From positions 352,001 through 416,000 of the forward strand of contig JBEKDT010000001.1 in assembly GCA_050014195.1 (NCBI GenBank): DNA of 64,000 nucleotides. Reading direction: 5' to 3'. The position numbers and the translations under genes are program-made. Positions 1 to 55,843 of this stretch are shown here, in pieces (position 1 is the stretch's first letter; each line of letters starts with the position of its first letter). Origin of the DNA: Desulfomonilia bacterium. Its GTDB lineage: Bacteria > Desulfobacterota > Desulfomonilia > UBA1062. The notes under the pieces were generated by a model. The model saw only the letters and a list, made by a program, of their open reading frames with translations, was not told where the DNA came from and ran no database searches.

Positions 1-2140
1 AGAGCACCACATGCGGGCCGGGCTCAAGGCTTGGGTACCTGGCTGTGAAATCAGCCTCAAGGACTGTCTCGCACAGACACACACCCAGGATGCCACCGGT
101 TTCTTCCATGGAGTGGAATGCATTTGTGCAAAGATTCATGACAATCTGGTGGATCTCTGTCGCATCGCAGTAGACCACGCCTGAGACCTTGTCGATGAAG
201 CTGTTTATCTCTATGGTTGTGGGTATGGTCGCCCGGAGGAGCTTGAGGGCCTCTTCCACAACCGGATACACACAAATCGGTTCCCTATGGGCCTTATATG
301 AACGGCTGAAGGAGAGGATCTGCTGTACAAGATCCCGTGCACGCATACCGGCGCCGGTGATCTGCTCGCAATATGCTGTCGAACGGCTCCCTTCCGGCAA
401 ATCATGCCTGAGCAGTTCGCTAAAGCCCAGGATGCCCGAGAGGATGTTGTTGAAGTCATGGGCGATACCGCTGGCAAGTGCCCCGATGGTTTCCATCTTC
501 TGGGCCTGTATAAAGCGCATCTCCTGCCTGACCCGCTCTTGCTCGGCCTCCTTGCGCTCGGTGATGTCCCGGACAATGCCCTGGAAGCCCACAGGCTCTC
601 CCCGTGCATTCCTGATGAGCATAATAGATGCCTCGACAAACATCGGGCTCCCGTTCTTCCGTATCTGCTCCCACTCAAAGGCCTTGATGGACTTACCCGT
701 CTGGAAGACCTGGTGAAACCGCTCAAAGACCTTCCGGGCATTCTCCTCATCCATGTAGTCCAGGTAATTCATACCGGAGAGCTCATCCTCGGTATAGCCG
801 AGGTTGTCGCATATGACATGGTTGAAGAAGGTGAAACTGCCGGATAAGTCCACCTCGAAGTACCCTTCCTGCATGTTCTCAACAATATTCCTATACTTAT
901 CCGTACTCTCCTTGAGGGCTTTCTGGGCCTTGATCTGCTCCGTGATGTCCCTGGCCGATCCCTGGATATAACTTGGGGTCCCATCCGGATGGCGTATGAG
1001 GACATTCCTGTATTCGACAACCCTGTCGTCGCCTTCTTTTGTCCTTACGCGCAGCAGCCCATCGTCACGGCCGTTTTCTATGATCCTGTGCAGGTATTCA
1101 TCAAATCCGTCGCGGTACTTCTCCGGGATGAGATCCCGTATGTTCATGCCCTTAAGGGCATCCGCCGTGTATCCGATACGCCTGACCGATGCCATGTTGG
1201 TCTCAATGATGGTGCCGTCCAACTCATGGATAATAAGGGAGTCACTGACGTTCTCGAATACCGTGCGGTACCTGTTCTCGCTCTCGCGCAGGGCCTCTTC
1301 CGCCAGCTTTTGGTCTGTGATATCACGGGCCACCCCTTGGATCGCATAGGGCTTGCCGTCACAGAAGATGAGGGCGCCGTTCGATTCAATGGTAATCCTC
1401 GTAGAGTCTTTCCTGGTGATGGTGAACTCACTCACCCCGTTCTGAGTTCCGTTCTTCAGGATCTCATCACGGATCTTTGCTGCAAGGGGGTATTGATCCT
1501 CCGTGATGAGTGACATGAAATTACATTGCGTGAGTTCCTGCAAGGTGTACCCGAGGGTATCGAGAGTCGCCTTGTTTGCATCGAGGTAATTCCCATCAAA
1601 GTCATGTACGTAGACAAAGAAAAGGGAACGGTCGAACAGGGCACGATATCGGCCCTCAACATCCTTGAGCTCATTCTGGATATTCTTGTAGGCGGTTATA
1701 TCCTTTAAAGACTCAATGGCGCCTATAATGTTTCCGCTAAAATCATACAATGGCTGGGCCTTGACCCACAGCACGGATTGCCCATGAGACTTCAGCAAAA
1801 CCTCTAGTTCTGCAAAAAACGCATCCCTATCAGAGGCGACGGAGGTATACAGATTGAGTATTTCATCATCCCTGCTTACGACATAGTCGATGAGGACAGG
1901 GCGTCTGTCTCCAAAGAAAGGCACTGCATATTCATATCCGGCCTTGCCGAGGATCTCGGATGTACATACGCCGGTGAGGTCTTCCATGGCCCTGTTCCAC
2001 GCAATCACCCTGCCCTCGGTGTCGATGGCATAGGTGGCATCGGGCTGACAATCAACGAGCTGAATGAGGAGCCTTTCCAAGCCGCTCAAGGTAAATCCGT
2101 CAGACAATTCAGGAAAATCTCCACCCCGGCGGAAACCCAT
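1..2140 (-). CDS. Multi-PAS sensor histidine kinase (3' end beyond window)
   Basis: Manual minus-strand translation from ATG 2140: PDATYAIDTEGRVIAWNRAMEDLTG (PAS), further PAS repeats, H-box QAQKMETIGALASGIAHDFNNILSG in the same frame, and HATPase start QIVMNLCTNA. It runs off the left edge, so it is absent from the ORF track. The start could lie somewhat further upstream. Confidence 0.9.
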   Translation of the reverse strand, partial: MGFRRGGDFPELSDGFTLSGLERLLIQLVDCQPDATYAIDTEGRVIAWNRAMEDLTGVCTSEILGKAGYEYAVPFFGDRRPVLIDYVVSRDDEILNLYTSVASDRDAFFAELEVLLKSHGQSVLWVKAQPLYDFSGNIIGAIESLKDITAYKNIQNELKDVEGRYRALFDRSLFFVYVHDFDGNYLDANKATLDTLGYTLQELTQCNFMSLITEDQYPLAAKIRDEILKNGTQNGVSEFTITRKDSTRITIESNGALIFCDGKPYAIQGVARDITDQKLAEEALRESENRYRTVFENVSDSLIIHELDGTIIETNMASVRRIGYTADALKGMNIRDLIPEKYRDGFDEYLHRIIENGRDDGLLRVRTKEGDDRVVEYRNVLIRHPDGTPSYIQGSARDITEQIKAQKALKESTDKYRNIVENMQEGYFEVDLSGSFTFFNHVICDNLGYTEDELSGMNYLDYMDEENARKVFERFHQVFQTGKSIKAFEWEQIRKNGSPMFVEASIMLIRNARGEPVGFQGIVRDITERKEAEQERVRQEMRFIQAQKMETIGALASGIAHDFNNILSGILGFSELLRHDLPEGSRSTAYCEQITGAGMRARDLVQQILSFSRSYKAHREPICVYPVVEEALKLLRATIPTTIEINSFIDKVSGVVYCDATEIHQIVMNLCTNAFHSMEETGGILGVCLCETVLEADFTARYPSLEPGPHVVL

Positions 2141-2412
2141 GAGCTGCCTGATATCCTCTATCGAACTTGTATCTGATCGGTATGTGCTCACAACATTTCT
2201 TCTCGGAATATGCAGATAAAAAATCAAATCCCCCTGAAGGGTTCCGGCTGATAATTCATCCCTATAATTTTCTTGCTTGATAAAAAGTGATCATGCTAAC
2301 CCAAAAGTCGATGAGAATAAGTTTGAGTCAGAACCCTGCATCAGGTCACTCCATAACCGGGACCAAGACCTCCTCCTCTAAACCGCCTCATAGCACAAAG
2401 GGTAAGGCGGCC

Positions 2413-3363
2413 ATGTCCATATGCCTCTCCGTGCTTGCCCTTGTTTCCATTATTTTCACGGTGGTCTCTTTATGCCCGGATGTATATGCGCTTAATCTTT
2501 CAGGGATGGTTTCGCTTGAGGCCGTCGATATGACCGGGCAAAACTCCTATGTGCAGAGGTTTGATGGCGGTCAAAGCACGTTGAAGTGGCCCATAGATGT
2601 AAAGGCCCTCGGTGTCAGGCTCGGCCTGGCCCAGGATAACCTCTGCGAGGCTGAGTTGGGCATTATCGCCGGGCCCTGGGAATCAACTTCAACGCCCATG
2701 AAGGACTACGATTATATCAACGAATCACTCTATGCCAAGCCTCCCCATAACGGGGTCGATATCTATTCAGAAAGCAAGCTGGATTCCAAAGTGCTCGTCC
2801 TTGATATGAATACAAGAGTCTTCCCTTTGCGCAATAGATTCTTTTCCGCAGGGCTTACGGCAGGTTATCGATATGAAAAATATGATTATAAGGCCTATGA
2901 CGTCCATCAAATAGGGTATGGCCCCTGGCAGAACCAGACAAGCACCACAACCGGACTGGTTTCTCTGTACTCCGTGGATTACGACATATTCTCTGTGGGC
3001 CTTGCTATAAGGACTGCTGTCAAAGACACATTTATCCTCACCGCTGAAGCATGCAGCCTCCCTCTTGTCTACGCCAATGACGAGGACAATCACCTCAAAC
3101 GCAACAGGATATCCACATCATCAACATCGGGTTCGGGCTATCAGGCCTCATTATCAGGCCTCTACAAGATCTATCAAAACTGGTTCATCTCCTCGGGATG
3201 CACCTACAGTACGATCACCACTGATGGCCACCAAAATCAATACTGGTATGGGGACGATCCTGCAACACCCAACAACGATACCGGGACCAGTCGCAATGGC
3301 TTACCCCTTAAGATCGAACAGAGAAATCTCCGCATCAGCCTTGGCGCTTCCAGACGATTCTAG
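2413..3363 (+). CDS. Omptin-family outer-membrane protease
   Basis: Signal-peptide-like N-terminus from ATG 2413, beta-barrel-type alternating residues, omptin-like motifs MKDYDY and DEDNH, C-terminal Phe. Confidence 0.75.
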   Translation: MSICLSVLALVSIIFTVVSLCPDVYALNLSGMVSLEAVDMTGQNSYVQRFDGGQSTLKWPIDVKALGVRLGLAQDNLCEAELGIIAGPWESTSTPMKDYDYINESLYAKPPHNGVDIYSESKLDSKVLVLDMNTRVFPLRNRFFSAGLTAGYRYEKYDYKAYDVHQIGYGPWQNQTSTTTGLVSLYSVDYDIFSVGLAIRTAVKDTFILTAEACSLPLVYANDEDNHLKRNRISTSSTSGSGYQASLSGLYKIYQNWFISSGCTYSTITTDGHQNQYWYGDDPATPNNDTGTSRNGLPLKIEQRNLRISLGASRRF

Positions 3364-3417
3364 GCAAATAAATGCACCAACCTTGAGGCAGACTCCATAT
3401 CTGTCGATAGATCCTTC

Positions 3418-4758
3418 ATGGCATCGATTCGGAGGCTCATTCGGAAAAACACAGACAGGGCACGTCATTGGCTGCCTTATGTTCAGGACAGGACAAGAGA
3501 GCTCATCATGCTCGTTCCCAGCCTGTTCTGCCTTGGAGAGGATATGACGGGTATCTTCGCACATCCCACGTGCACGCTAGAGCAATATTCCCTCCTTAAA
3601 AAACATCTGGATGGAAAATTTGATGTAGCGGTTGCAAGGCTGCCGGATTATATCCTCATCGAGAGCCTGATCATGGTCCCTCGGCCGAGCATAGTGAGCA
3701 CGGACTTCTTAAACCTCCTCTTAATCATCATCCCGACCGATGGTGCGCCAATTGAGAAGATCGAGCAGAAATGCTCTGAGATTGAGCTGTTCTTCCGTGC
3801 AAGAGGCATTGGAATGGCCACTCATATCCTCCATGGCAAGCTGCCCCCGCTCACCCTGTATGAAGTCATGCGCCTCGGCATAGTGCTTGCCGGCAGGCAC
3901 CCTATCTTCCGGAGAAACGACGAGACGGAGATGAGTTTTTTTGCAGGGGAGATCGCGGACATCATCAGCGATACCCAAACCATATATTCATCCGAATGGA
4001 ACCCTTTCCAGCATATCCTGGAGTGCGAAACGGAAACAACCATAAGAAAGCACACGTATCATCCCCATATGAACTTACATTCGATGAACCCGTTCATAGC
4101 GCCCTATATGCCGATGCTCATCAGATACGAAGAGGAACTGAATGCAGACATGCTCCTCACCTTAAGACTCTGCATCAGCGCCCTCTTTTTCCATTTCGGC
4201 CCGACCAGGGAAACCTTGGCGGAGATGATGAGGGCATGGCGGCTGAGTGCCACGCAGATCCCTGATGTATCCAATCTAAGCCTTGACGAGGCCATGCGCC
4301 TCAGGAATATTTTTGTCCCCCTTGACGAGCATGAACTTCCCGTCTTCTCCTGGCCCCCTAACCCTTTTTGGCAACTGAAAAATGCAACGCTTGTATGGGA
4401 CGGACCCGGCTGGAGGCTTGGCGAATCAGAGTCATTCCTTCATAAGCATGCCTGGGTGGTCCTTGCCTGGGCGGCCATATCGGGTCTCATCGGGAGCAGC
4501 ACCCTGCTCAAGACCCCGGATGGCCTCTTGCTTAAGACCAATGCCGTGGAGACCCTTGCAAGCCTCAAAGATGCAATCTCCAAGGGAGCCGACATCATCA
4601 CGTCCAGTGATCCCCGCCAGGGATCCATACGCATCAACAGGGGCAGATTCTTCTTCTCTGATTCACCTTATGCAATCTTGGAACGCGGCAGAAAGATCAG
4701 TCTTGTGCTCTTTAAGGAAATAAAGAAAAAGGCCCTGCTCGACGATAGTGGTTTGTAG
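3418..4758 (+). CDS. Divergent, probably inactive class I adenylate cyclase homolog
   Basis: Colinear blocks recall CyaA class I: LVPSLF, KIEQKCSEIE, LYEVMRLGIVLAGRHPIF, MNPF...LRLC, LAWAAISGLI. The catalytic GS/DxD motif is not retained. Confidence 0.6.
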   Translation: MASIRRLIRKNTDRARHWLPYVQDRTRELIMLVPSLFCLGEDMTGIFAHPTCTLEQYSLLKKHLDGKFDVAVARLPDYILIESLIMVPRPSIVSTDFLNLLLIIIPTDGAPIEKIEQKCSEIELFFRARGIGMATHILHGKLPPLTLYEVMRLGIVLAGRHPIFRRNDETEMSFFAGEIADIISDTQTIYSSEWNPFQHILECETETTIRKHTYHPHMNLHSMNPFIAPYMPMLIRYEEELNADMLLTLRLCISALFFHFGPTRETLAEMMRAWRLSATQIPDVSNLSLDEAMRLRNIFVPLDEHELPVFSWPPNPFWQLKNATLVWDGPGWRLGESESFLHKHAWVVLAWAAISGLIGSSTLLKTPDGLLLKTNAVETLASLKDAISKGADIITSSDPRQGSIRINRGRFFFSDSPYAILERGRKISLVLFKEIKKKALLDDSGL

Positions 4759-4772
4759 GGAAAGGATATTAC

Positions 4773-5798
4773 ATGCCCATTAGCCCAGGAATAAGAATCC
4801 TCATGATCGGACCCAATGCCTTTTACCACAAGAACGTAGCGGCCATGCTCGGCAAGATCGGGTTCAACAACGTGGAGCATGCCGACGACGGACCCACCGG
4901 ATGGGAGATCATGAAGAGGATAAACCCCGGTATCGTCGTCGCCCAGTGGGAAATGCCCGAGATGAATGGTATGGCCCTGCTCAAACTTATCCGTTCGGAT
5001 ATGCAGTACTCGGATACACCCGTTATCCTCTGGACCACTGAGATCAATAAGAGCGACGTCATCAAGGCCGGAGAAACAGGGGTGAATGCCATCCTTGTGG
5101 AGCCCTTAAGCCTGGAGATCCTGGATAAAAAGATAAGCCTTATCCTGGAATTCGAAATGAGCCCGTCTGCAAAGAAGGCAAAGGCATATTTGGATAAGGG
5201 CGATTCATACATGAAGGCAGGTCTTTTTGATCTTGCCCTGAAGGAATATGAGCATGTCCTGAGTATCCTGGAATCAGCCGAAGTTTACTACAACATCGGA
5301 TACATCCATACGGCTAGAGGTGAATACGATGAGGCGCTGGCCGCCTTCAGGAAGGCCACCCAGATCAACCAGTTGTTTGCAAAGGCCTACCAGGCCATGG
5401 CTGAAGTATACATCAAGATGAACAATAATGAGATGGCCGAGAAATATCTCAACATGGCAGGCGAGATCTTCTTAGAGCGGGACATGCATGAAAAGGCCGA
5501 GAGTATCTTCAATGAGATTATCTCACTGAACCCGAATACGACAAATGTCTACAACAGCCTAGGCATTATCTATAGGAGGCAGAACCGGCACGCAGATGCC
5601 GTGAAGGTCTACCAGAAGGCAATCAAGATCGACCCTGCCGACGAAAACATCCACTTCAATATGGGCAGGGCCTATCTTGAGATGGAAGAAACCCACCTGG
5701 CAAAGGAATGCTTTATAAAAGCGCTTAAGATCAACCCGAATTTTGAAACAGCCTCCAACATGGTCAAGGCGCTTGAGTCCATGGAAAAGACCCCCTGA
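4773..5798 (+). CDS. Atypical receiver domain plus TPR repeat protein
   Basis: N-terminal REC fold (VAQWEMPEMNG, where DW.MP is canonical) followed by several TPR repeats (AEVYYNIG, VYNSLG, IHFNMG). Confidence 0.85.
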   Translation: MPISPGIRILMIGPNAFYHKNVAAMLGKIGFNNVEHADDGPTGWEIMKRINPGIVVAQWEMPEMNGMALLKLIRSDMQYSDTPVILWTTEINKSDVIKAGETGVNAILVEPLSLEILDKKISLILEFEMSPSAKKAKAYLDKGDSYMKAGLFDLALKEYEHVLSILESAEVYYNIGYIHTARGEYDEALAAFRKATQINQLFAKAYQAMAEVYIKMNNNEMAEKYLNMAGEIFLERDMHEKAESIFNEIISLNPNTTNVYNSLGIIYRRQNRHADAVKVYQKAIKIDPADENIHFNMGRAYLEMEETHLAKECFIKALKINPNFETASNMVKALESMEKTP

Positions 5799-5808
5799 GT
5801 CCAAGCCC

Positions 5809-7029
5809 CTAATAGTATTTCTTCAACTCGAACACCTTTCGGTCTTGTGTCGCCACGATGTGGTAGAACTTATCCTGGGGTATGTAGATGTAAGGCACAT
5901 CCTCTTCCCGCCGGTAGAGAAAGTGCGAGAGGATCATGCGGTTAACGGCCCTATGCCCGATGATCATAATGTTGTCGGGTCTCTGGTTTAAATAAAAGGC
6001 CTTTTTAATGCCGATCTTGATCCGCTCCTTCATGCTCACATAACCTTCGCCGCCGGGGTAGATATAGTTGTACTTATCCGCCTTCCGGGCGGAATAAATG
6101 TCCGGTTTGAAGCGCTGGATCTCGTCATAGGTCATGCCCTCGCAGATGCCTGCATGGATCTCGTTGAATTCCTTTAAGGGTACGATGGTACAATCATCCT
6201 GGAGGGCCTTAATGGCCCTGGCAGTCTGGATGGTCCTCTTCCTTTCGCTCGTAAAGATATATGATATTTTTTTATTTTTAAAAAACCGGCCAAGGGCGCC
6301 GGCCTGATCCTTGCCCTTGGGCGTGAGGTCCGGGTCCCCGCCGATGCGGTCCTCCACGTTAAAGAAGGTCTCGGTGTGGCGGATGAGGAAAAGGCCCTTC
6401 ACCACGTCGGTCACCAGGCAGTCTCTGATGCGGGAATAGAGCGGGAGCTGATCCTCGATCTGCTCGATGAGGACTCTATTATGCAGGGAATCCATGGTGA
6501 TGAAGTTTCGCTCCACATGCAGCGGGCTGTATATTATTCGATAGTATTCGATCCTCTTCTTGAACTCTTTGACAGCCAGCTTATCACTCAGGGATGAGAA
6601 CTCGGGGGCACGCACTTTGTGTTGGATGCTTACATCCACGATATCCTCGTCGTTGTTGATACATTCGATATACAGTATGGGATGGTCTTTCAAATGCTCC
6701 TCGATAAGCTCGCGCCTGTTGCGGCTTACGTTCGTGGCGTCCAGGATGGCCACTTGGCCCTTGTTCTTCAGGTACAGATTTGCTCGGTTGATGTTCATAA
6801 GGGCGAACTTCTTCCTGAGCTCAGCAGCGGCCTTGTTTTCAGGATTATAGAATTCCGCCCTCCATGTTTCCTTGGGTGCATATTTTCTTCTCAGCTCGCC
6901 GTTGTTGTAGATCATGGTATGGATGGAGTTCTTCTGAAAGATGTCCTGTAGACGGTATGCAATCGTGGACTTACCCTGAGAAGGCAGGCCCACCATTATG
7001 ATAAAGAGCTTCTCATCCTTGATGGTCAT
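5809..7029 (-). CDS. Bifunctional 6-phosphofructo-2-kinase/fructose-2,6-bisphosphatase-like protein
   Basis: Kinase domain: MVGLPSQGKS P-loop and DATN. Histidine phosphatase domain: RHTET..N...RIGGD, NEIHAGICEG, RKADKY, GHRAVNR. Confidence 0.88.
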   Translation of the reverse strand: MTIKDEKLFIIMVGLPSQGKSTIAYRLQDIFQKNSIHTMIYNNGELRRKYAPKETWRAEFYNPENKAAAELRKKFALMNINRANLYLKNKGQVAILDATNVSRNRRELIEEHLKDHPILYIECINNDEDIVDVSIQHKVRAPEFSSLSDKLAVKEFKKRIEYYRIIYSPLHVERNFITMDSLHNRVLIEQIEDQLPLYSRIRDCLVTDVVKGLFLIRHTETFFNVEDRIGGDPDLTPKGKDQAGALGRFFKNKKISYIFTSERKRTIQTARAIKALQDDCTIVPLKEFNEIHAGICEGMTYDEIQRFKPDIYSARKADKYNYIYPGGEGYVSMKERIKIGIKKAFYLNQRPDNIMIIGHRAVNRMILSHFLYRREEDVPYIYIPQDKFYHIVATQDRKVFELKKYY

Positions 7030-7200
7030 TGAAACTGAATAACATTCGCCTTCTGGCAACACAAGGCCTTTTGCTCATACGAATGCCTTTTGATCCGGCA
7101 TTATCAATCACTTTTTCCTCTAATGATTTCCCGACCCGATCGTGCCTTAAACCAGCACCAGGGCGCGCTCCACATCGACTTAAGACTTGAGAAAAACACC

Positions 7201-7241: not shown

Positions 7242-7315
7242 TGGGGGATGGTCTAATGGCAAGACAGCGGACTCTGACTCCGCTTATCTAGGTTCGAATC
7301 CTAGTCCCCCAGCCA
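7242..7315 (+). tRNA. tRNA-Gln(CTG)
   Basis: Acceptor TGGGGGA/TCCCCCA, anticodon arm GCGGA-CT-CTG-AC-TCCGC, GGTTCGAATCC T-arm, encoded CCA. Confidence 0.96.
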
Positions 7316-7324
7316 AAATGTTTT

Positions 7325-7400
7325 GGTCCCATCGTCTAGTGGCCTAGGACAACGGCCTCTCACGCCGTAAACAGGGGTTCGATTCCCCTTGGGACTACCA
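7325..7400 (+). tRNA. tRNA-Glu(CTC)
   Basis: Acceptor GGTCCCA/TGGGACT, anticodon arm ACGGC-CT-CTC-AC-GCCGT, GGTTCGATTCC, encoded CCA. Confidence 0.96.
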
Positions 7401-7409
7401 GGCAAATCC

Positions 7410-7447
7410 AAAGGGTTGCGTAATTAAGCGTGACCCTTTTTGTTTTT
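7410..7447 (+). terminator. Putative intrinsic terminator after the tRNAs
   Basis: AAAGGGTTGCG...CGTGACCCTTT hairpin followed by a T-rich tract. Confidence 0.65.
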
Positions 7448-7471
7448 ATAGCGTTTATTCCCGCCACTATT

Positions 7472-7615
7472 CCCTCCAGACACAGCGATCACGATGTTAT
7501 TGGGCAACGGGTCAATGGATTTGTCCACGATCAATATATCACCAGAATGTATCCCGGCATCGATCATAGATGTTCCCTCCACCCTGACGAAGAAGGTGAC
7601 TGTTTGGTTCTTCTG
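7472..7615 (-). pseudogene. umuD: UmuD/LexA S24 peptidase fragment
   Basis: Manual translation: QKNQTVTFFVRVEGTSMIDAGIHSGDILIVDKSIDPLPNNIVIAV. The N-terminus and the catalytic-Lys segment are missing. Confidence 0.8.
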
Positions 7616-7660
7616 GTACCTGTGGGTAATGGATTTGATTATTTCTTTATGGTTTCACCC

Positions 7661-7888
7661 TTAATCAATTGGGATGTTCAAAGCCAAGTGTCGTGGAAAA
7701 TGTGGATGTCCACCATGCCTGTCTAGGGCAACAAGCAGATAGACCACTGTTACAACTGTGAGGGCTACGATGAGTGCAATATCTACTCCTTGTTCATTCC
7801 TATGATCATCTTCATTACCGTAGGCATACGCTGTTGAAAAGCCGAGAAAAGACAATATCACCAGTATAGATAGCATTTTCTTGATCAT
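7661..7888 (-). CDS. Small exported/membrane protein of unknown function
   Basis: AGGAGG RBS, signal-peptide-like start, second hydrophobic segment. Confidence 0.6.
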   Translation of the reverse strand: MIKKMLSILVILSFLGFSTAYAYGNEDDHRNEQGVDIALIVALTVVTVVYLLVALDRHGGHPHFPRHLALNIPID

Positions 7889-7944
7889 GATATCCTCCTT
7901 ATCTCTTTTGCTGAGATCCAGACTGTCTTATTTCCTCAAATTTT

Positions 7945-7959
7945 GCATAAGATATGCCA
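7945..7959 (-). promoter_or_regulatory. Possible sigma54 promoter of the small membrane protein gene
   Basis: Minus strand reads TGGCAT-ATCTT-ATGC (GG-N10-GC). Confidence 0.4.
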
Positions 7960-7985
7960 GATATATAGCCTGTAATATCATATAG

Positions 7986-8192
7986 ATGATAGATGTAGTT
8001 GTTGTATTTCAGCCACAGATGATCATAGACCAGAGTACCTTGATCACAGGATCATTCAACTTCACCAAAGCTGCTGAGGATAATAATGCTGAAAATCTGC
8101 TTATCATAAAGGGCAACAAGTCTTTGGTGGACAGATATATTCAGAATTTCAATGAGCATAGAGAGCATTCTGAAAGATATTCCTGGAGATAA
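7986..8192 (+). pseudogene. Phospholipase D-family (Nuc-like) nuclease, C-terminal fragment
   Basis: MIID...ITGSFNFTKAAEDNNAENLLII is the second half of the HxK-x4-D...GSxN motif. The HxK and the N-terminus are absent. Confidence 0.8.
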
Positions 8193-8232
8193 ATTTGCTA
8201 TACAGAACAATTAAGTTAGCTCTTATAAGTGA

Positions 8233-8850
8233 TCAAATAATCACTCCCATTAAACACAGAGAGCCAATCCACACCCTCTCGATGTTTATGACATTGAACA
8301 TCGTATTTCCGTACTCCAGCGGTATTGCCCATTCCACAGCCTCTTTTTCCACCAGATTCAATTGGAAATGACGGTTGAAACTCTCAATGGTTGATTCTAG
8401 ATTTTCTACCATGCTCTCAAGGGAAAGCCTGAGCTGATTCCTCTGCTTATCAAGCTCATGTCCAACATTACTCAACACCCGGGGAAAGTCTGTGAGGATC
8501 TTCGCTGAGACATGCCTATATGATGCGGTCACCTCAGTCTTTGAGATCATGCCATTGGTACAGACGAGCCGTAGAAAGAACGATGATATGGATAACGACG
8601 CTATACCCACTTCACTGTTTGATACAGATATACCCGGAGTCATCCTGTCTCAATTGACCGTGTACATCTTATCTTATCCCCATCCGGAATATTCACAGCG
8701 AGGGAATTATCATCCAACGAAGACTGTACCGGCGTATCGACGAATATCCCAGCTTCATGAGGTGTTCCAAGACCTCAACATTGTCCGTTGGGATACCGTG
8801 GTGTGAATATTGCCCTCACCTCGTTCCGGTCGAACCTGAAGAATAGCTCA
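8233..8850 (-). pseudogene. DUF932-family protein, frameshifted remnant
   Basis: GISVSNSEVGIASLSI..FFLRLVCTNGMI. Upstream pieces lie in other frames ([19 protein letters not shown]; DNVEVLEHL). Confidence 0.7.
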
Positions 8851-8989
8851 TGGTAATCCTCACCACACCCAGGGCAATCATGTCATTAAAATTAGTCAAA
8901 TGTGTATGTCGGCGATTCAAAAGAAGGGAATACTATGGTATATCCAAAAAAACATAGAGTGCATAAAACCAGAATCGAGGAACAAAGCA

Positions 8990-11128
8990 ATGGCAAAGCA
9001 ATCAGACAATGACATCACCAGAGAGACCGCACCAGGCGCACCGCAATCCGTAGACTTCATCCGCACCATCATCAATGAGCACATGCGGACACTCAAGTAC
9101 GACGGCAGGGTGAACACCCGCTTCCCACCGGAACCAAACGGCTACCTGCACATCGGCCACGCCAAGTCCATCTGTCTGAACTTCGGCATAGCAGCCGACT
9201 ACAAAGGCATCTGCAACCTGCGTTTCGACGACACCAACCCTTCTAAGGAGGACCAGGAGTACATCGACTCCATCATGGAGGATGTGCGCTGGCTCGGCTT
9301 TGACTGGGAAAACAGGATATATTATGCATCCGACTACTTCGAGAAGACCTACGAGCTCGCCGAGGAGCTCATCAGAAAAGGCCTGGCCTATGTGTGCGAC
9401 CTGAGCGCAGAAGAGACCAGGCAGTACCGGGGCACGCTCACCGAACCCGGCAAAGACAGCCCCTACCGGAATCGAAGCATGGAGGAGAACCTTGATCTGT
9501 TCCACCGCATGAGGGCCGGGGAGTTCCCGGACGGGGCCCGGGTGCTCCGCGCCAAGATCGATATGGCCTCACCCAACCTCAATATGCGCGACCCCATCAT
9601 CTACCGGACCCTCCGCTCCACCCACCACCGCACCGGCGACGACTGGTGCATCTACCCCATGTACGACTATGCGCACCCTATTTCCGACTCGCTGGAGAAG
9701 ATCACCCATTCCATCTGCACCCTGGAGTTCGAGGACCACAGGCCGCTCTATGACTGGTTCCTGGAGAAGCTCGACATGTACCGGTCCCAGCAGATCGAGT
9801 TCGCCAGGCTCAACCTGAGCTATACCATGATGAGCAAGCGCAGGCTTCTTGAGCTTGTACAGCTCGGAATCGTGTCGGGCTGGGATGACCCGCGCATGCC
9901 CACCATAGCAGGGTTGAGGCGCCGCGGTTATACCCCCGAGGCCATCAAGAAGTTCTGCGACCGCATCGGGGTGGCCAAGAAGGACAGCATGGTGGACATG
10001 GCGCTGTTGGAGTACCACATCCGTGAAGACCTGAATGAAAAGGCTCCCAGGATCATGGCAGTGCTGCAACCGCTTAAGATAACCATCGAGAACTACCCCG
10101 AAGACGCAACCGAGGAATTCGAGATCCCCTATCACCCGGACAATGCAGCCATGGGCTCCCGGAAGGTCCCCTTCTCCCGGACACTTTTTATCGAGCAGGA
10201 CGACTTCATGGAAAACCCACCGGACAAGTTCTTTCGCCTGGCCCCTGGAAGAGAGGTGAGGCTCCGCGGTGCTTACTTCATTACCTGCACCGCTGTGGTG
10301 AAGGACAAGAAGACCGGACGGATAACCGAGCTGAAATGCACCTACGACCCGGCCACCAAGGGCGGAGATGCCCCGGACGGCCGCAAGGTGAAAGGAACGC
10401 TCCATTGGGTTTCTGCCGGTCACGCCGTCACCGCAGAGGTGAGGCTGTACGACCGGCTCTTCATGGTGGAGAACATCAGTGCAGAGGCCGAAAGGACGGG
10501 GAAGGATTACAAGGAATTTTTGAACCCGGACTCACTCGTATCCCTCAAAGGCTGCAAGCTTGAGCCGTCTGTTGCCTCGTCAAGGCCTCTGGGCCGCTAC
10601 CAGTTCGAGCGCCAGGGCTATTTCTGTGCGGACTCAAAGGATTCCACGGGGCAGGCCCTCGTATTCAACCGCACCGTCACCTTGCGAGACTCCTGGGCCA
10701 AGATCGAGAAAACAGCATCAGGCACAAAACCCTCAGCGAAGGGTAAAGCGCCCGAGAAAAAGACCCATGCCACGGAAAAACCTGCGCCCGGGAAACAACC
10801 TGAGATCACCATCGACGACTTTTCAAAACTCGACCTCAGGGTGGGCAAGATCATGGAGGCGTCTGACGTCCAGGGCTCGGACAAGATGGTGCGGCTCATG
10901 ATCGATCTGGGTGAAGGCCGGAACCGCCAGATCTTTGCAGGCATCAGGGGCGCATACCCCGACATGGCAAGCCTCGTGAACAAGAAGGTCATCGTGGTGG
11001 CAAACCTGAAGCCCCGCCAGATGAAGTTCGGCACATCCGAGGGCATGATACTGGCGGGCGGTAGAGGTGACATCTGGAGTATCTGCACCTTTGACGGCGA
11101 CCCCGAACCGGGAGACAAAGTTTCATAA
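8990..11128 (+). CDS. glnS: Glutamine--tRNA ligase with C-terminal Trbp111/EMAP-like tRNA-binding domain
   Basis: [43 protein letters not shown]-rich linker follows, then [14 protein letters not shown]...[20 protein letters not shown]. Confidence 0.95.
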
Positions 11129-11420: not shown

Positions 11421-13259
11421 ATGATGAGCCTGTTCGGATCAGTCAGAAATCTCTCAACCCATACCACAGTCAGGAAGGGAAACAATGAACCTGTAACACC
11501 GGAAACCGGCCAGATCTGGGCAAACTCACTTTCCCGGGTGGACAATATGCTCGACGGCCTCATTGCAGCGTCCGAGTCTGATTTTCTTACCATTGCCGAG
11601 AATCTCCAGGAATACCACATGCGCGCACTGAAGATGTGCGAAAAGTCAAGCGAAGTGGTCGAGATCATGACGGGTGAAGCCCTGAGATCCGCTACGGATG
11701 GGCTGAACGGGATACTCGATGAATTGAAAACCCATCTTGTCGAATCAAAAGGTCACTTTTCACAGATGAGCAGGGTCTTCCAAGAGCATCGTATGGAACT
11801 TTCCAAAATATCATCCAACATCGAGTCCTTCAGATTACATATCCTTAACTTGAACATGCTGGGTTTCCTCACCCAGGTGGAAAACGCACACATTTATACC
11901 CTGAATACCGGATTTTCAACCCTGACTGATGATGTGAGGCATCTCTCCGAGATGATCAAGCAGAAATCTTCACATATCAGTACCGTATCTGATAACGTGC
12001 AGTCATTCGTTTCTCTTGCACTGTCAAAGATCACCGATTTTGAAAAAACCCAGAGTGAAAGTGCGAGGATTACCCTGGAAAAGGCAGTGGCAAACCACCG
12101 CTCCCTTTCTCATAAATTTAAAAGCGCTTCAGAAGCAGCACGGCTCGTCGAGCAGGTAAGCAAAGACATAGCTTCAAGTATCGGTGACATCGTCATCTCG
12201 ATGCAATTTCACGACATCACGAGGCAGCAACTCGAACATGTGAAGGAGGTGCTTGACCATCTCTGCGCACAAATCGGTAAGGATGATTATACGAAACTCG
12301 AACAGGCAGCCATGGTGAGGGATGTCTTAAAGCTTCAGCATGCCCAGCTGAGGCAATCCCATGAGGAGCTTGCCAATGCGGTGTTCAAGGTCATTGCAAG
12401 CCTCCAGAACATTACCAAGAACGTAAGCGATGTCCTCATGGAAACCCAGGATGTAGCATGGGCCTCTGACACACAGGGGGAGTCTTTCATGGAGGGCATC
12501 GACAGCGGGATCACCTCGGTTATAGAGTGCATCAGAGTCATTGCAGAGGAGCATGCAAAACTTTCTGAAACCGTAAACTCAGCGAGCGAAATGGTTTCCG
12601 AGATGTCTGTGTTCGTTAAAGATATCGAGTCGTTAGGGCTGAACCTCCAGCTTATTGCACTGAATGCGCGGATCAAGGCAGCTCACCTGGGGTCGGAAGG
12701 GGCAATGCTTGATACCATTTCGGGAAGCATTTACGAACTCTCAAAGAATGCCCGTGAAGACACAAAGGACTTAAGCCGGGTACTGGCAACCCTTGTGGAC
12801 CTCTCCATAAGTTTCAAGGATGACATGCTGCATATGCAGGACAAGCAATCAAAGACTATCGGGCTCATGGTGGGTAAACTCAGGGACCTGATCGCCTCAC
12901 TGCGCAAGATAAACGATGCGGTTCATGCAATGCTCAACGAAATGAAGGGCTTGGGTGAATCTCTCTTGTTGGATCTCCAGAATACGGCAGATGAGATTAC
13001 GGTGCATGATAAGGTGGAGAATATACTGAAAAAAGTCCTGAAGATCATAGAAGATACCTCTGAGAGTGCCCGCCTTATCTGCCCCATAGGGTTTGAAACA
13101 GTCGCATTATCGCTTTTGTCAAATCTCAATAGACTCTACACCACAAAAAGTGAGAGGGACATCCATGATCAACACATCGAGTCGGGTCCCGAAGGGGCTC
13201 AGGAATCAGAAAAAACAAAGGCCGGTGATGATCATTGGGAGAACTTAGAACTTTTCTAA
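11421..13259 (+). CDS. Soluble chemoreceptor-like protein with two divergent signalling hairpins (paralog 1)
   Basis: No TM segments; SMQFHDITRQQLEHV; LIALNARIKAAHLG; C-terminal NLELF; colinear with 25328..27163. Confidence 0.8.
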   Translation: MMSLFGSVRNLSTHTTVRKGNNEPVTPETGQIWANSLSRVDNMLDGLIAASESDFLTIAENLQEYHMRALKMCEKSSEVVEIMTGEALRSATDGLNGILDELKTHLVESKGHFSQMSRVFQEHRMELSKISSNIESFRLHILNLNMLGFLTQVENAHIYTLNTGFSTLTDDVRHLSEMIKQKSSHISTVSDNVQSFVSLALSKITDFEKTQSESARITLEKAVANHRSLSHKFKSASEAARLVEQVSKDIASSIGDIVISMQFHDITRQQLEHVKEVLDHLCAQIGKDDYTKLEQAAMVRDVLKLQHAQLRQSHEELANAVFKVIASLQNITKNVSDVLMETQDVAWASDTQGESFMEGIDSGITSVIECIRVIAEEHAKLSETVNSASEMVSEMSVFVKDIESLGLNLQLIALNARIKAAHLGSEGAMLDTISGSIYELSKNAREDTKDLSRVLATLVDLSISFKDDMLHMQDKQSKTIGLMVGKLRDLIASLRKINDAVHAMLNEMKGLGESLLLDLQNTADEITVHDKVENILKKVLKIIEDTSESARLICPIGFETVALSLLSNLNRLYTTKSERDIHDQHIESGPEGAQESEKTKAGDDHWENLELF

Positions 13260-19827: not shown

Positions 19828-20065
19828 AAAGGTCTATTCATACCATATCGACAATCATGGCTCACCCCCATACCTTGCCCTCTTCCCCTGCCCGGGCAGA
19901 GGGCTGTTTTTTCAGGAACACCATCGGATCGAGACCGGTGGTCCAAGAAGGCGGAGCCATTCAATACCAACTTTCAAGAAATGAGCATGATCTGGTCGGC
20001 AGCCACACAGGCATCCTCGACAAGGATCATTGTTCTCATATCACTGTCGCTTCAGGGAGGAGACA

Positions 20066-22099
20066 ATGTTTAAGAATTTGAAACTAGGTACAAAACTTAT
20101 TCTTGTGGGGTCGATCCTGCTGTTGGTCCCGATCTCAGTTGTGGGTTATCTCTCGGTGAAACAGGCGAGCAAAGGCCTCTCCGAGATCGAGGACGAGCAG
20201 CTCGCAGGGGTCACAAAATCCCTTGCAGGGGCTATCAACAATGCCCTGGATGGGGAGATGATGGTCGTGAAGGATCTCTCCATTGGCCCTGAAACGATCC
20301 GGGCTGCTGCCTCGGTAGCCAATGCAGGATTTCAGGGGGCACAAGGAGATATCACTGCGCTCAATCAGAGACTCAGTCGTTTCGCACAGACCGATGGGTT
20401 GAAGGACAACTCACAGGTAGTCTATGTCACAGATCGCGAAGGCAAGGCATTTGCCGCTTCGGTTGATAAGTACATCGGGGTCTCTTTTTCTGAAAGACAG
20501 TATATCAAAGATGCCCTTGCCGGAACTCCGAACATCGGCAGACCGGATGTCAACAAGGTTACCGGCGAGCTCTTTGTCCCCATTGCTGCACCCATCCATT
20601 CACCGGACGGCAAGGTGGTGGGGGCCGTAGCAAACATCCTTTCCATCGGGATGTTGAGCGATCTGGTAGCCGGCACAAAGACCGGAAAAACCGGATACGC
20701 CTTCATGGTGGACAAAGAAGGGCGTTTCATTGCCCATCCGGACAAGGACAATCTGTTGAAGCTCAATGTAACAACCCTGCAGGGCATGGAAGAGATAGCA
20801 AAAAAGATGCTTTCCGGCCAATCAGGTGTGGAACACTATGTCTTTAAGGGGGTTGCGAAGACCGGCGGCTTTGCCCCGGTGGCTCTGACGGGCTGGAGTG
20901 TCGGGCTTGCACTCCCTGATGCGGAGTTCCTTGCCCAGGCCAATCAGGTTCGTAACATCGTCCTCGTGGTTGGTATCATATTCTTCATCGCCGCCTTTGT
21001 AGTGTTTTTCTTGTTTTCCCGGATCATCACCAGCGGTATCCGTAAGGGCGTCGACCTGGCGGTCCATGTGGCGGAGGGGGATCTCACCGCAAACATCGAC
21101 ATCCAGCAGAAGGACGAGATCGGCCAGCTGGCAGATGCCTTACGAAATATGATGACCAAGCTCAGGACTATCGTGGCGGATGTCCACAGCGCAGCGGACA
21201 ATGTGGCTGCGGGCAGCGAGCAGATGAGCTCCACGGCCGAGCAGATGTCCCAGGGCGCGAGCGAGCAGGCTTCCGCTGCCGAGGAGGCATCGTCATCCAT
21301 GGAGCAGATGGCATCCAACATACGCCAGAACGCGGACAATGCCCAGCAGACCGAGAAGATAGCCATCAAGTCTGCCGAGGATGCCCGCGAGGGCGGCAAG
21401 GCCGTGGTGGAAACAGTATCGGCAATGAAGACCATTGCAGAAAAAATAGCCATCATAGAGGAGATCGCCCGACAGACAGACCTTCTTGCCCTGAATGCCG
21501 CCATTGAAGCGGCCCGGGCCGGAGAGCACGGCAAGGGCTTTGCCGTGGTTGCAGCAGCAGTCAGGAGGCTAGCCGAGAGGTCCGCGGATGCAGCAGGCGA
21601 GATCAGCAAGCTCTCGGTGAGCAGTGTAGCGGTTGCCGAAAAAGCGGGGAAGCTCCTTAACCAGATTGTGCCCGATATCCAGAAGACCGCCCAGCTCGTT
21701 CAGGAGATCACCGCAGCGAGCAATGAGCAGAATACCGGGGCCGAGCAGATTAACTCCGCCATCCAGCAGCTCAATCAGGTGGTCCAGCAGAACGCATCCG
21801 CAGCAGAAGAGATGTCTTCCACATCCGAGGAGCTCTCGAGCCAGGCCATGCAGCTCCAGGCGGCCATTGCATTCTTCAAGATCGACAAGGAAGGCTCCAG
21901 GAAAACCGCAGCAGTGGCCCGAACAATAAAGACCGGTCATGTGGCGGCCAAACCACAGGTACTAAAGGCACACCATGAAGGGCCCAGGGTCATCACGGGC
22001 AGAGACGAAAACTCTTCCCATCACGCGGGTGTGCTCATCAACCTGAGCGACCATGAATCAACTATCGACGTGCATGATGACGATTTCGAGAAGTATTAA
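20066..22099 (+). CDS. Methyl-accepting chemotaxis protein (Cache-type sensor, HAMP)
   Basis: Two TM helices, HAMP (DEIGQLA), [31 protein letters not shown]-terminal DFEKY, GGAGG RBS. Confidence 0.95.
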
Positions 22100-22116
22100 T
22101 AAAAATGAGGCGTACG

Positions 22117-22189
22117 GCATGAGGCACTGGGCTTGGGGAGCTATCTCATGAACAGCGAACCGGACATAACCAAGCACAATGCCTCATGC
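22117..22189. repeat. 20-bp imperfect inverted repeat between mcp and cheW
   Basis: GCATGAGGCACTGGGCTTGG (22117-22136) and CCAAGCACAATGCCTCATGC (22170-22189), 18/20 complementary. Confidence 0.75.
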
Positions 22190-22262
22190 TCAGCCAGAAA
22201 TAACATTGGTCATGAAGATGCAGTGACGGAGACAGACATATAAACGGAACAAGGAGAAGGCA

Positions 22263-22784: not shown

Positions 22785-22806
22785 GAGACAATGAGGACAT
22801 AATTCA

Positions 22807-23688: not shown

Positions 23689-25322
<1,634 letters not shown>

Positions 25323-25327
25323 ATGTC

Positions 25328-27163: not shown

Positions 27164-27186
27164 GGGGGATGAAAAGGGGGACTTAA

Positions 27187-27895: not shown

Positions 27896-27959
27896 GTGCA
27901 CCTACAAAAAAAGATGATTCCATGAGAGAATCCAACATTTTTCATTGAGGAAGGTAGCT

Positions 27960-55839: not shown

Positions 55840-55843
55840 ATTA

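Follow-up and report, generated by a model that had tools for sequence, protein, structure and literature searches.

Within a 64,000-nt stretch of Desulfomonilia DNA (hereafter the window), a sequence-only reading had singled out two adjoining genes, here called A and B, as a class I adenylate cyclase stripped of its catalytic site and a receiver stripped of its phosphorylation site, and had proposed that they form an undescribed signalling pair. The locus raises the question of whether A descends from the cyclases, whether either protein could still work in the manner of its relatives, and whether the two work together. The answer we favour, and which we hold to be somewhat better than evenly supported, is that a dead relative of the class I cyclases and a partner made of a pseudo-receiver and TPRs act together by binding and not by catalysis.

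Genes A and B are intact and stay together

Gene A occupies positions 3418 to 4758 of the forward strand (446 aa) and gene B positions 4773 to 5798 of the same strand (341 aa). ORF calls confirmed both sets of coordinates as first read, and with them the 14-nt gap, inside which a Shine-Dalgarno-like GGAAAGGA (4759 to 4766, forward strand) can be read from the sequence 6 nt 5' of the B ATG. The claim that both frames are intact was borne out by dN/dS values below 1 (0.14–0.28 for A and 0.05–0.14 for B, the only two genes whose rows of that comparison were used), and A has accumulated substitutions about 1.9 times faster than B. A and B are intact genes under purifying selection. No signal peptide was seen in either protein when the sequences were read directly.

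We surveyed the neighbourhood of the pair in related genomes. A and B adjoin, with gaps of 2–42 nt, in all 12 loci that hold both genes whole, and two further loci at contig ends are consistent with this arrangement. In one of the 12, L010, the omptin-like, kinase and PFK2 neighbours described below are replaced, and the pair (6-nt gap) sits between a polyphosphate kinase and a metallophosphoesterase gene; in L016, the sole locus that lacks B, what remains of A is broken. Taken alone, adjacency says little for joint function, since the region from the kinase through GlnRS is collinear in the lineage and L010 is a single case. It could accordingly be argued that A and B are mere neighbours with unrelated functions, held side by side by lineage-wide synteny, as the stretch between the PAS kinase and GlnRS is collinear in several loci and every locus belongs to a single group of related metagenome-assembled genomes (MAGs). 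We consider this unlikely, given that the short gaps recur in 12 of 12 loci, that the pair persists in L010 although both flanks differ, that A has decayed where B is missing, and that the 23–34 A-family proteins recovered from large protein sets are confined to this group.

We also considered whether the functional unit is larger than the pair. Upstream of A, by 54 nt, lies a gene for an omptin-family outer-membrane protein (2287 to 3363, forward strand), which matches PF01278 at 43.6 bits (cut-off 22.6) and, in the PDB, Pla at E 9e-5 with the D-x-D and D-x-H motifs aligned. Its D140 and D142 and a further Asp and His face Pla D84, D86, D206 and H208, which we take to be the omptin catalytic residues, and none of 12 orthologues has lost the motifs. 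Its active site thus appears intact on sequence, and the true start codon may be that of the Met at 2413, which precedes the signal peptide. In 12 loci the gene shares the strand of A and lies 47–100 nt 5' of it; L010 lacks it. A sigma-54 pattern was found 5' of it in none of 12 cases. Further upstream, and cut by the start of the window, a soluble histidine kinase with three PAS domains and a HisKA domain is encoded on the reverse strand (2 to 2227). The protein contains no receiver domain, no gene beside it encodes a canonical response regulator, and tblastn detected it in 10 of the 15 loci; the full-length orthologue in L004 consists of three to four PAS domains, HisKA and HATPase_c, again with no receiver. 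Downstream of B, on the reverse strand (5809 to 7062), lies a gene for a bifunctional 6-phosphofructo-2-kinase/histidine-phosphatase of the fructose-2,6-bisphosphatase-like kind (PF01591 at 7.7e-39, PF00300 at 5.8e-36), which is 73–97% identical in 12 loci and has a metallophosphoesterase gene in its place in L010.

These neighbours allow a reading in which the omptin-like protein, A, B and the orphan PAS kinase form one envelope or proteolysis signalling system, B contacting the kinase without phosphotransfer. The steady position and conserved catalytic motifs of the omptin-like gene and the recurrence of a kinase that lacks both receiver and nearby regulator speak for it. We nevertheless doubt it, because L010 keeps A and B with neither the omptin-like gene nor the kinase, because the conserved upstream element that A has of its own (described below) suggests a separate promoter, and because no signal peptide can be read in A or B, in contrast to the exported omptin-like protein.

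Gene A resembles class I adenylate cyclases

A belongs to a family of which we gathered 34 members (23–34 depending on the search), each of about 450 aa and without any Pfam domain. They come only from MAGs labelled Desulfomonilia, Thermodesulfobacteriota or Deltaproteobacteria, apart from two labelled Bacteriovoracaceae, and an exhaustive phmmer and profile search with A returned nothing outside the family itself. The description of A as undescribed stands in that Pfam, NCBIfam and PADLOC hold no name for it and that no description was found in the literature searched on inactive class I cyclase homologues, mostly at the level of listings and abstracts. Among the PADLOC models, no family matched A or the omptin-like protein, and B gave only weak generic TPR matches.

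AlphaFold2 (AF2), given 34 sequences, returned a confident model of A (mean pLDDT 91.0, pTM 0.88) with an N-terminal nucleotidyltransferase-like alpha/beta core (residues ~79–175), a helical domain (~196–299) and a C-terminal alpha/beta domain (~322–430). The class I adenylate cyclases known are active enzymes and belong for the most part to Gammaproteobacteria. In our judgement A is very probably homologous to them by sequence, a shortened and highly divergent homologue being the best explanation, recognised by several sub-threshold signals with no single significant match. This homology is drawn from five weak lines that all point to class I adenylate cyclases: sub-threshold family matches in NCBIfam and Pfam, the language-model neighbours of whole A and of its C-terminal half, a colinear profile alignment, and secondary structure.

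The sequence-only reading had cited five strings of E. coli-type CyaA, and all five are present in E. coli K-12 CyaA, colinear with the blocks of A to which they had been matched. CyaA LLPTLL aligns with LVPSLF of A, LLQRKCSLLE with KIEQKCSEIE, LDEFYRTAVRLAGKR with LYEVMRLGIVLAGRH, DPYCMML..VRRC with APYMPML..LRLC, and VAWAWFNGL with LAWAAISGL. Profile matches to class I cyclases stayed below threshold. A itself matched no Pfam or NCBIfam family at E≤1, and the curated class I cyclase cut-offs (PF12633/PF01295 and NCBIfam) were reached by no member. Below those cut-offs, NF006981 ('class I adenylate cyclase', NCBIfam) matched six of the 34 members with a best E of 0.0046, and it was the sole NCBIfam family to match more than two of them. 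Pfam gave four sub-threshold matches over all 34 members: in a set of 11, PF12633 (E 0.052, at the LAGK block) and PF01295 (E 0.35), these two cyclase families in 2 of the 11, and FmrO (0.16), and among the other 23 (E≤10) one match to the unrelated FA_desaturase (0.032). In the ESM Atlas, the 30 nearest clusters of whole A by features were all class I cyclases, with a score of 0.93 and 171 of 256 features shared, where scores of at least 0.9 also arise, by the tool's own text, for 4–10 in 100 shuffled proteins; residues 200–446 alone again retrieved PF01295 clusters (scores 0.88–0.79).

Alignment of the A family with 12 CyaA sequences by hhalign was colinear, pairing A 18–279 with CyaA 23–363 and A 342–366 with CyaA 485–509. 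Among columns conserved to 90% or more in both families it gave 21 identities, whereas the reversed alignment gave 5 and none of 30 column shuffles gave more than 9; with a single CyaA sequence set against 67 real decoys, there were 19 identities at conserved positions and the decoy maximum was 9. The top hhalign score was 24.4 with the single CyaA and 30.1 with 12, which placed CyaA 4th of 68 real proteins, three of the 67 decoys scoring higher. Reversed controls scored 24.7–25.2, and shuffles of 15-column blocks reached 28.0 against a real score of 27.3 in an earlier 16-sequence profile. The profile-profile comparison is weak because the cyclase profile, built from CyaA relatives at least 85% identical together with Proteus (74%) and Aeromonas (52%) from a plasmid collection, reached no deeper into the class. 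With hmmsearch --max, the top three matches outside the family, among 154 non-family sequences, were all CyaA. 

Secondary structure was compared between AF2 models, and the E. coli CyaA model, built with 16 close homologues, had a pLDDT of 40.5 and was for this reason unusable in three dimensions and used for secondary structure only. With that poor model, agreement with A was 75.8% over 281 aligned residues, compared to a mean of 39% and a maximum of 49.5% in 345 shift controls; between residues 155 and 175 of A, three strands face a helix in the CyaA model. Overall, the best hhalign score is not significant alone, and the identities at conserved positions, the sub-threshold matches of the family and the secondary structure exceed all controls.

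Structure searches were consistent with a nucleotidyltransferase-like core. Searches of the PDB by sequence with A and with its profile gave no matches, and no class I cyclase structure was found there by sequence. Foldseek, run with the A model against the PDB, which is without a class I cyclase, gave no match at E≤0.001 (best E 0.24). Its weak matches were MNT-type nucleotidyltransferases and MamM/CzrB C-terminal domains, so that MntA/MNT antitoxins of the DNA polymerase beta superfamily were among the best, non-significant, matches: 6m6v_A at E 0.33, with a TM score by target of 0.43 over 85 columns, and also 6m6u, 7aer, 5yep, 8xeo, 8xeh, 7ae2 and 7bxo. These matches fit the core predicted in the model, with the aligned part of the query not given by the tool. 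Unlike A, which has 446 aa, two further domains and no catalytic carboxylates, the MNT proteins are active, about 120 aa long and partnered by HEPN toxins.

Compared to CyaA, A appears to have the same order of secondary-structure elements and, in the alignment, shares among other residues P34 (CyaA P39), K118 (K136), R152 (R188), G159 (G195), W194 (W249), R250 (R326) and W351 (W494). It is indeed much shorter, as had been claimed, at 446 aa versus 848, and several CyaA insertions are missing. The C-terminal regulatory half (about CyaA 540–848) is also missing, the alignment stopping near CyaA 509, whereas PF01295 spans CyaA 228–825. Two differences concern setting: the family occurs in Desulfomonilia-type MAGs and not in Gammaproteobacteria, and A is always followed by a pseudo-receiver–TPR gene.

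The catalytic site of A is degenerate

The nucleotidyltransferase motif of A (3652 to 3735, forward strand; residues 79–106) is built as a strand, a PRPS loop and a strand, and the AF2 model places the strands at 79–90 and 98–106. In the hhalign mapping, CyaA G102 and S103 face A P88 and R89, and CyaA D114 and D116 face N99 and L101 in the stretch PRPSIVSTDFLNL. The site had been read as degenerate, and rightly so, G-S and D-x-D being replaced by P-R and N/L. Throughout the family, the four columns hold P/V/L, R/V/M, S/N/A and L/M/T/I, with an Asp at the second Asp position in 2 of 23 members, and the signature G[GS]-x(9-13)-D-h-[DE]-h was found in none of the 34. As the two metal-binding Asp residues and the G-S loop are lost, A most likely makes no cAMP; the corresponding CyaA residues G102, S103, D114 and D116 are presumably the essential ones. 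We regard A as probably catalytically dead on these sequence grounds.

Some acidic residues are kept: E149, which faces CyaA E185, is D or E in 22 of 23 members, and E239, E306 and D398 vary little or not at all. These leave room for a non-canonical activity, and A might still be an enzyme, be it a nucleotidyl cyclase, a transferase or another, with B as its regulator. Purifying selection, a compact and confidently predicted fold, the four acidic residues, and K118 and R152, which match the conserved CyaA K136 and R188, would suit such a role. We find it improbable, because the D-x-D strand carries S/N/A and L/M/T/I and the G-S loop reads P-R, and because the former active-site region (residues 81–200) is among the least conserved of the protein, at 43% mean pairwise identity. 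We give very little credence to the idea that A is unrelated to class I cyclases and represents a new fold family with chance or compositional likenesses: no match passes a curated threshold, the best hhalign score loses its significance beside real decoys, Foldseek found nothing significant and high Atlas scores also occur for shuffled proteins, but independent libraries and methods converge on one family among thousands, their matches run colinearly and fall on conserved residues, and the secondary-structure agreement lies far beyond the shift controls.

The C-terminal end of A is its best-conserved segment. Along the protein, mean pairwise identity is 65% for residues 401–446 versus 43–52% elsewhere. 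The tail (4708 to 4755, forward strand; residues 431–446, LFKEIKKKALLDDSGL) carries a motif present in all 34 members, in which K438, D442 and D443 are invariant, and AF2 gives these last 16 residues low confidence (pLDDT blocks of 66 and 47, with 439–443 below 50).

Gene B encodes a pseudo-receiver fused to TPRs

The N-terminal domain of B (4773 to 5156, forward strand; residues 1–128) is a CheY-derived, aspartate-less pseudo-receiver. Residues 18–121 match PF00072 at 53.5 bits (cut-off 30.2), and the domain fits the NCBIfam CheY model NF007901 at 1.1e-20, below its cut-off, and CheY chains of the PDB at about 1e-19. CheY was its best response-regulator match, and W58-x-M-P-x-M-x-G and T87 are kept. 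In contrast to E. coli CheY, D12 is replaced by G, D13 by P, D57 by Q and K109 by E (read in MIGPN, AQW and VEP), Y106 by I, and the protein extends into C-terminal TPRs. T87 is thus the only one of the active-site quintet (DD, D, T, K) to remain. The same pattern holds in all 14 orthologues, with D12 to G, D13 to P, Q, L, T or A, D57 to Q (E in L010), K109 to E or D, and T87 kept.

The C-terminal domain (5157 to 5798, forward strand; residues ~129–341) contains about six TPRs, with TPR_1 matching at 8.8e-37 over five stretches, TPR_2 and TPR_8 over six stretches each, and consensus-TPR chains of the PDB at 4.7e-61. Mean pairwise identity is 78% for the TPR part versus 63% for the receiver. 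B is, by its sequence, an aspartate-less pseudo-receiver with TPRs in 14 of 14 orthologues, so the initial description of a receiver lacking acidic pocket, phospho-Asp and Lys and fused to TPRs holds. With all three missing, B would be unable to be phosphorylated.

A 2025 review defines a pseudo-receiver as a receiver by profile without the conserved active-site residues, including the phospho-Asp, a definition that B fits, and calls the mechanisms of such domains 'a mystery' (PMC12632262). In FrzS of Myxococcus xanthus, the pseudo-receiver serves for docking, and what it binds are three TPRs of SgmX (PMC9811614), a precedent for the binding role proposed below. B shares with this system the combination of a pseudo-receiver and TPRs, and differs in having both in one polypeptide. 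The main text of the papers searched on aspartate-less and pseudo-receivers makes no mention of a TPR output.

A and B may form a binding module

The initial suggestion that A and B act together as a scaffold or allosteric module has indirect support on three grounds, namely their tight spacing, the retention of the pair when its flanks change, and the conserved tail of A, predicted with low confidence, beside a TPR protein; we think joint action somewhat more probable than not. In the mechanism that we propose, A would be a shortened, fast-evolving descendant of the class I (CyaA-type) catalytic region that has lost its metal-binding Asp residues and G-S loop and would serve as a pseudoenzyme scaffold or ligand sensor. 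B would be translated from the same transcript, 14 nt 3' of A, and the two would constitute one protein-interaction module independent of both phosphorylation and cyclase activity. The flexible, conserved tail of A (..KKKALLDDxxL) would dock into the TPR groove of B, and the pseudo-receiver would face a third partner, either as a docking domain or as an autoinhibitory one. The tail as a TPR-docking peptide, suggested by the model, is a tentative assignment that we would sooner doubt than adopt.

If this is true, the A family is a catalytically stripped, half-length branch of the class I cyclases in a distant phylum and a natural example of a bacterial pseudo-nucleotidyltransferase. Because it folds confidently from 34 sequences, it would also serve as a small model for the core of class I cyclases, and its fixed partner would be a tractable case for how pseudo-receivers are used. 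By itself, the finding opens no long-standing question and its range is narrow.

Conserved elements before A and in its tail

A conserved non-coding element precedes A (3383 to 3411, forward strand) and consists of a -35-like TTGAGG (3383–3388), a 17-nt spacer and a -10-like GATAGA (3406–3411), the latter within the conserved TGTCGATAG (3402–3410). It ends 6 nt 5' of the A ATG and contains invariant columns in an alignment of 13 upstream regions, and the heptamer G(T/A)CGATA stands 8–10 nt 5' of the A ATG in all 14 loci, including L010 and L011. No Shine-Dalgarno sequence was found before A, and the consensus promoter scan did not report the element. That A has a promoter of its own, which would give a leaderless or very short-leader A-B transcript, is to our reading of the sequence an evenly balanced possibility.

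A second copy of the heptamer, GACGATA (4741 to 4747, forward strand), lies 25 nt 5' of the B ATG inside the codons of the Asp-Asp of the A tail, and in 15 of 15 loci these codons read GAC GAT and are followed by an A-initial codon of a variable residue. Taken together, the heptamer before the start of A and that in the tail codons before B might hint at a single factor, perhaps the A-B complex, acting on both genes. It can be imagined that A is a former cyclase turned nucleotide or metabolite sensor, that its tail and the TPRs and pseudo-receiver of B form a switch that works with neither phosphotransfer nor second messenger, and that both genes are under shared heptamer control, maybe by A-B itself. 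We rate this combination as quite unlikely; if true, it would be a signalling module made entirely of 'dead' parts and endowed with autoregulation.

As a regulon motif the heptamer was rejected, with 23 matches in the window versus 21 expected. An Rfam scan returned three tRNAs and nothing else, and the consensus scan was uninformative, counting eight promoter-like sites (6.0 expected) and six terminator-like sites (4.2 expected).

Organization of the locus and the family of gene A

Gene A (3418..4758, + strand), a candidate class I adenylate cyclase relative of 446 aa, is followed on the same strand by gene B (4773..5798, + strand), which encodes a CheY-derived pseudo-receiver with TPRs of 341 aa; both ORFs are present just as the sequence-only reading had put them forward. 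The 14-nt spacer between them contains GGAAAGGA, which ends 6 nt ahead of the B ATG. A is preceded on its own strand by a gene for an omptin-family outer-membrane protein (2287..3363, +), further upstream of which comes a divergent soluble PAS histidine kinase gene (2..2227, −) that is truncated by the window edge; a convergent 6-phosphofructo-2-kinase/histidine-phosphatase gene (PFK2; 5809..7062, −) is found downstream of B. The remainder of the window is ordinary chromosome, rich in signalling genes and containing tRNA synthetases, a che cluster and housekeeping genes. The omptin-like protein has a signal peptide and a C-terminal Phe, and its Asp-x-Asp and Asp-x-His, aligned to the Pla active site, are conserved in 12/12 orthologues; the omptin family is unexpected in a Desulfomonilia-type genome. 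The bifunctional PFK2 protein, with its fructose-2,6-bisphosphatase-like histidine-phosphatase, has an architecture typical of eukaryotes and shows 73–97% identity over 12 loci.

A matched nothing in Pfam, NCBIfam or PADLOC, and no PDB sequence. A word-indexed search with A returned 23 clusters (415–459 aa), in which no Pfam domain was detected; the few that carry a name are annotated as ‘hypothetical protein’ in MAGs of Desulfomonilia or Deltaproteobacteria. An exhaustive phmmer search of 1.84 billion representatives gave 16 proteins at E ≤ 0.001, every one a family member or a fragment of one, and a profile search with the family recovered 23 proteins, solely family members. The proposal that the system is undescribed held good as far as these sources reach: the A family is nameless in Pfam, NCBIfam and PADLOC, and a literature search judged at abstract level found no description of A or of inactive class I adenylate cyclase homologues. 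As had also been noted, both ORFs are intact. They are under selection, with dN/dS values of 0.14–0.28 for A, indicating that the gene is maintained, and 0.05–0.14 for B. With a mean p-distance of 0.52 against 0.28, A evolves ~1.9 times faster than B, the orthologues of which are 61–97% identical to the window protein. An alignment of 34 assembled A-family members yielded a confident AlphaFold2 model of A (mean pLDDT 91.0, pTM 0.88), in which an N-terminal helical stretch leads into an alpha/beta core (strands 79–90, 98–106, 132–137 and 155–175), followed by a five-helix domain (196–299) and a C-terminal alpha/beta domain (322–430).

A is very probably homologous to class I adenylate cyclase

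The kinship of A with CyaA, the E. coli class I adenylate cyclase (PF12633 and PF01295 in Pfam, NF006981 in NCBIfam), was claimed from colinear sequence blocks, and it stood in part: the conserved blocks are colinear and sub-threshold matches to all three profiles were found among family members, whereas no profile threshold was reached. The window protein fell below every threshold in Pfam and NCBIfam, and scanning 23 family members at E ≤ 10 gave a sole match, to one unrelated family. The best hhalign scores were small (24.3 against the single E. coli CyaA, 27.3 against 16 enterobacterial CyaA sequences and 30.1 when Proteus and Aeromonas were added) and are unexceptional, since 3 of 67 real decoy proteins outscored the single CyaA, reversed alignments reached 25.2 and 24.7, and shuffles of 15-column blocks reached up to 28.0. 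The Foldseek comparison that the sequence-only reading had proposed gave no match of the A model at E ≤ 0.001, but in a PDB copy that by sequence holds no class I cyclase.

Several other lines of evidence point to common descent. When all 34 members were searched against NCBIfam at E ≤ 10, NF006981 matched six (best E 0.0046), and the remaining three families listed matched 2, 1 and 1 members. In Pfam, 11 further members gave three matches in total at E ≤ 10, two of which were to both class I cyclase families, PF12633 on the ..LAGK.. block (E 0.052) and PF01295 on residues 220–280 (E 0.35), each at a position consistent with the hhalign register. The 30 clusters that lie closest to A by features in the ESM Atlas are all class I cyclases (score 0.93, 171/256 features common), and PF01295 clusters again came top for the C-terminal 247 residues only, with scores (0.88–0.79) in the range that serves as a lead only. 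The hhalign alignment itself is long and colinear (A 18–279 with CyaA 23–363; A 342–366 with CyaA 485–509) and puts in register 21 residues with at least 90% conservation in the A family as well as in CyaA, compared with 5 in the reversed alignment and at most 9 in 30 column shuffles; against real decoys, CyaA gave 19 conserved identities and 163 aligned columns, the decoy maxima being 9 and 120. When the family profile was searched with the HMMER filters disabled, CyaA took the top three places among the 154 sequences from outside the family, with E-values (0.39–0.72, in a small set) that are individually non-significant and come from sequences that are mutually close kin. Secondary-structure (DSSP) strings of the A and CyaA models agreed at 75.8% of 281 aligned positions, compared with a mean of 39% and a maximum of 49.5% in 345 shifted registers, and 12 of 15 aligned elements were of the same type; given the low quality of the CyaA model (pLDDT 40.5), this counts as secondary-structure evidence only. 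Class I cyclases are expected to have a polymerase-beta-type core, which the MNT-type minimal nucleotidyltransferases recurring among the weak Foldseek matches of A would fit. That A is not truly related to cyclases accords with the missing threshold matches and the unexceptional hhalign scores, but with all lines combined we consider homology highly probable. Even so, A is not classed here with the class I cyclase enzyme family.

A and B are kept together as a probable unit

A scan of the genome collection gave 15 loci, all from MAGs labelled as Desulfomonilia, Thermodesulfobacteriota, Deltaproteobacteria, Syntrophaceae or, in two cases, Bacteriovoracaceae. In the survey of the gene neighbourhood that had been called for, B starts 2–42 nt after A in each of the 12 loci where both genes are complete, and two further loci, one stopping within B and one starting within A, are compatible with the pair. 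The sole A-like sequence without B, on a 2.7-kb contig (L016), is a remnant at 3–651 spread over two frames (3–422 and 430–651) with its last third missing and a sigma-54 activator coming next; it is either a decaying pseudogene or the product of a misassembled contig.

Synteny alone is weak evidence for pairing, and would allow A and B to be mere neighbours, since the wider order of kinase, omptin-like gene, A, B and PFK2 (with GlnRS where the flank extends) is also retained in most loci. The same wider order would suit a larger unit in which the omptin-like protease and also the orphan kinase join A-B. Against both readings stands locus L010, where A and B, 6 nt apart, lie between polyphosphate kinase/CHAD and metallophosphoesterase genes; a pair kept between different flanks argues that A-B is the unit. 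A-B is a neat, testable candidate pseudoenzyme pair, narrowly distributed.

Loss of the catalytic residues in A and B

The nucleotidyltransferase GS..DxD site reported missing from A is indeed absent. In the hhalign alignment, G102-S103 and D114/D116 of CyaA, which we take to be essential, and W118 lie opposite P88-R89 and N99/L101/I103 of A, with the 10-residue spacing unchanged; in the model P88-R89 are on the loop following strand 79–90 and N99/L101/I103 on strand 98–106. The signature G[GS]...DxD occurs in 0 of 34 family members, and in a 23-member alignment the D114 and D116 columns hold S/N/A/G/C and L/M/T/I, with D in two. A is also much shorter than CyaA, as had been noted, and nothing in it corresponds to CyaA past approximately residue 509, the regulatory half included. 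A is thus probably catalytically dead. A rival reading, rated unlikely, is that A has residual or new enzymatic activity: the acidic residue opposite CyaA E185 is retained (E149) and E239, E306 and D398 are conserved, so a different chemistry is possible.

The receiver of B (residues 18–121) matched PF00072 at 53.5 bits (cut-off 30.2) and is followed C-terminally by TPRs (TPR_1, 8.8e-37 in Pfam); among response regulators it comes closest to CheY proteins (NCBIfam 1.1e-20, under its cut-off; PDB CheY chains ~1e-19). E. coli CheY served as the reference for an alignment of 14 B proteins, the one in the window plus 13 orthologues obtained by translating related loci. The acidic pocket, phospho-Asp and Lys, the loss of which had been claimed, were absent in 14/14: D12 is replaced by G, D13 by P/Q/L/T/A, D57 by Q (E in L010) and K109 by E or D. 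Y106 is replaced by I in all 14, and T87 is retained throughout. Under the definition given in PMC12632262, the receiver counts as an aspartate-less pseudo-receiver. Such domains are already well known; as they make up several percent of ~2 million receivers according to that source, B alone is a further case of a known kind.

A putative binding-based mechanism

The highest conservation within A is found in residues 401–446 (65% mean pairwise identity vs 43–52% in the rest), in which K438, D442 and D443 are invariant across the 34-member alignment, and residues 431–446 are the sole low-confidence part of the model. A conserved sequence without fixed structure is as expected of a short docking motif. 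The tail is thus a candidate docking motif, for which the product of the next gene would offer a peptide-binding TPR array; within B, the TPR part is more conserved than the receiver part (mean pairwise identity of 78% vs 63%). A pseudoenzyme/adaptor pair of this kind would signal via binding, not catalysis. According to PMC9811614, the ligand of the Myxococcus FrzS pseudo-receiver is three TPRs and, by analogy, the receiver of B may pack on its own TPRs or recruit another partner.

A conserved heptamer ahead of A and within its last codons

No Shine-Dalgarno sequence precedes A. In 14/14 loci, including L010, a heptamer, G(T/A)CGATA, lies 8–10 nt ahead of the A ATG (window 3403–3409). A cTTnAG block is located 14 nt upstream of it. 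From their placement we infer that cTTnAG could be a −35 and the heptamer a −10 element with a 17-nt spacer, in which case transcription would start at about the A ATG; a consensus promoter scan did not report the site. A second copy lies in the last codons of A (4741–4747), where GAC GAT encodes the tail's invariant Asp-Asp without exception and the next codon, for a variable residue (S/K/I/T), begins with A, both in 15/15 loci. This in-gene copy, which is 32–54 nt ahead of the B ATG in 12 of 13 loci, looks like the result of nucleotide-level constraint, and the heptamer is the most unusual loose end of the A-B locus. A second exact copy of TGTCGATAG occurs at 50969–50977 (+) between two minus-strand genes. 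Enrichment of the motif in the window was rejected, with 23 matches at ≤1 mismatch against 21 expected.

Other features of the window

A glutaminyl/glutamyl-type class I tRNA synthetase (8900–11128, +) carries an additional C-terminal tRNA_bind domain (residues 646–739), and tRNA-Gln(CTG) and tRNA-Glu(CTC) genes (7242–7315 and 7325–7400) lie just upstream. The interval from the tRNA genes to the synthetase (7430–8800), which is only ~620 nt in L004, holds a 68-aa fragment (7986–8192) that by eye resembles the last part of a PLD/Nuc-type nuclease, as well as an ORF of 136 aa (8233–8643, −) for which Pfam gave no match; both look like leftovers of an insertion beside the tRNA genes. A GGDEF-domain protein (54916–55890, −) with the signature GGDDF, the Pfam match of which spans profile positions 6–94 of 161 only, may be another degenerate signalling enzyme and adjoins an HDOD protein (55844–56713). 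In two proteins of 612 aa (11421–13259, +) and 611 aa (25328–27163, +) the MCP signalling domain is the only one recognised, by matches that are both weak and partial (2.5e-09 and 2.1e-10, respectively), and one of the two proteins lies inside the che cluster at 20030–30071.
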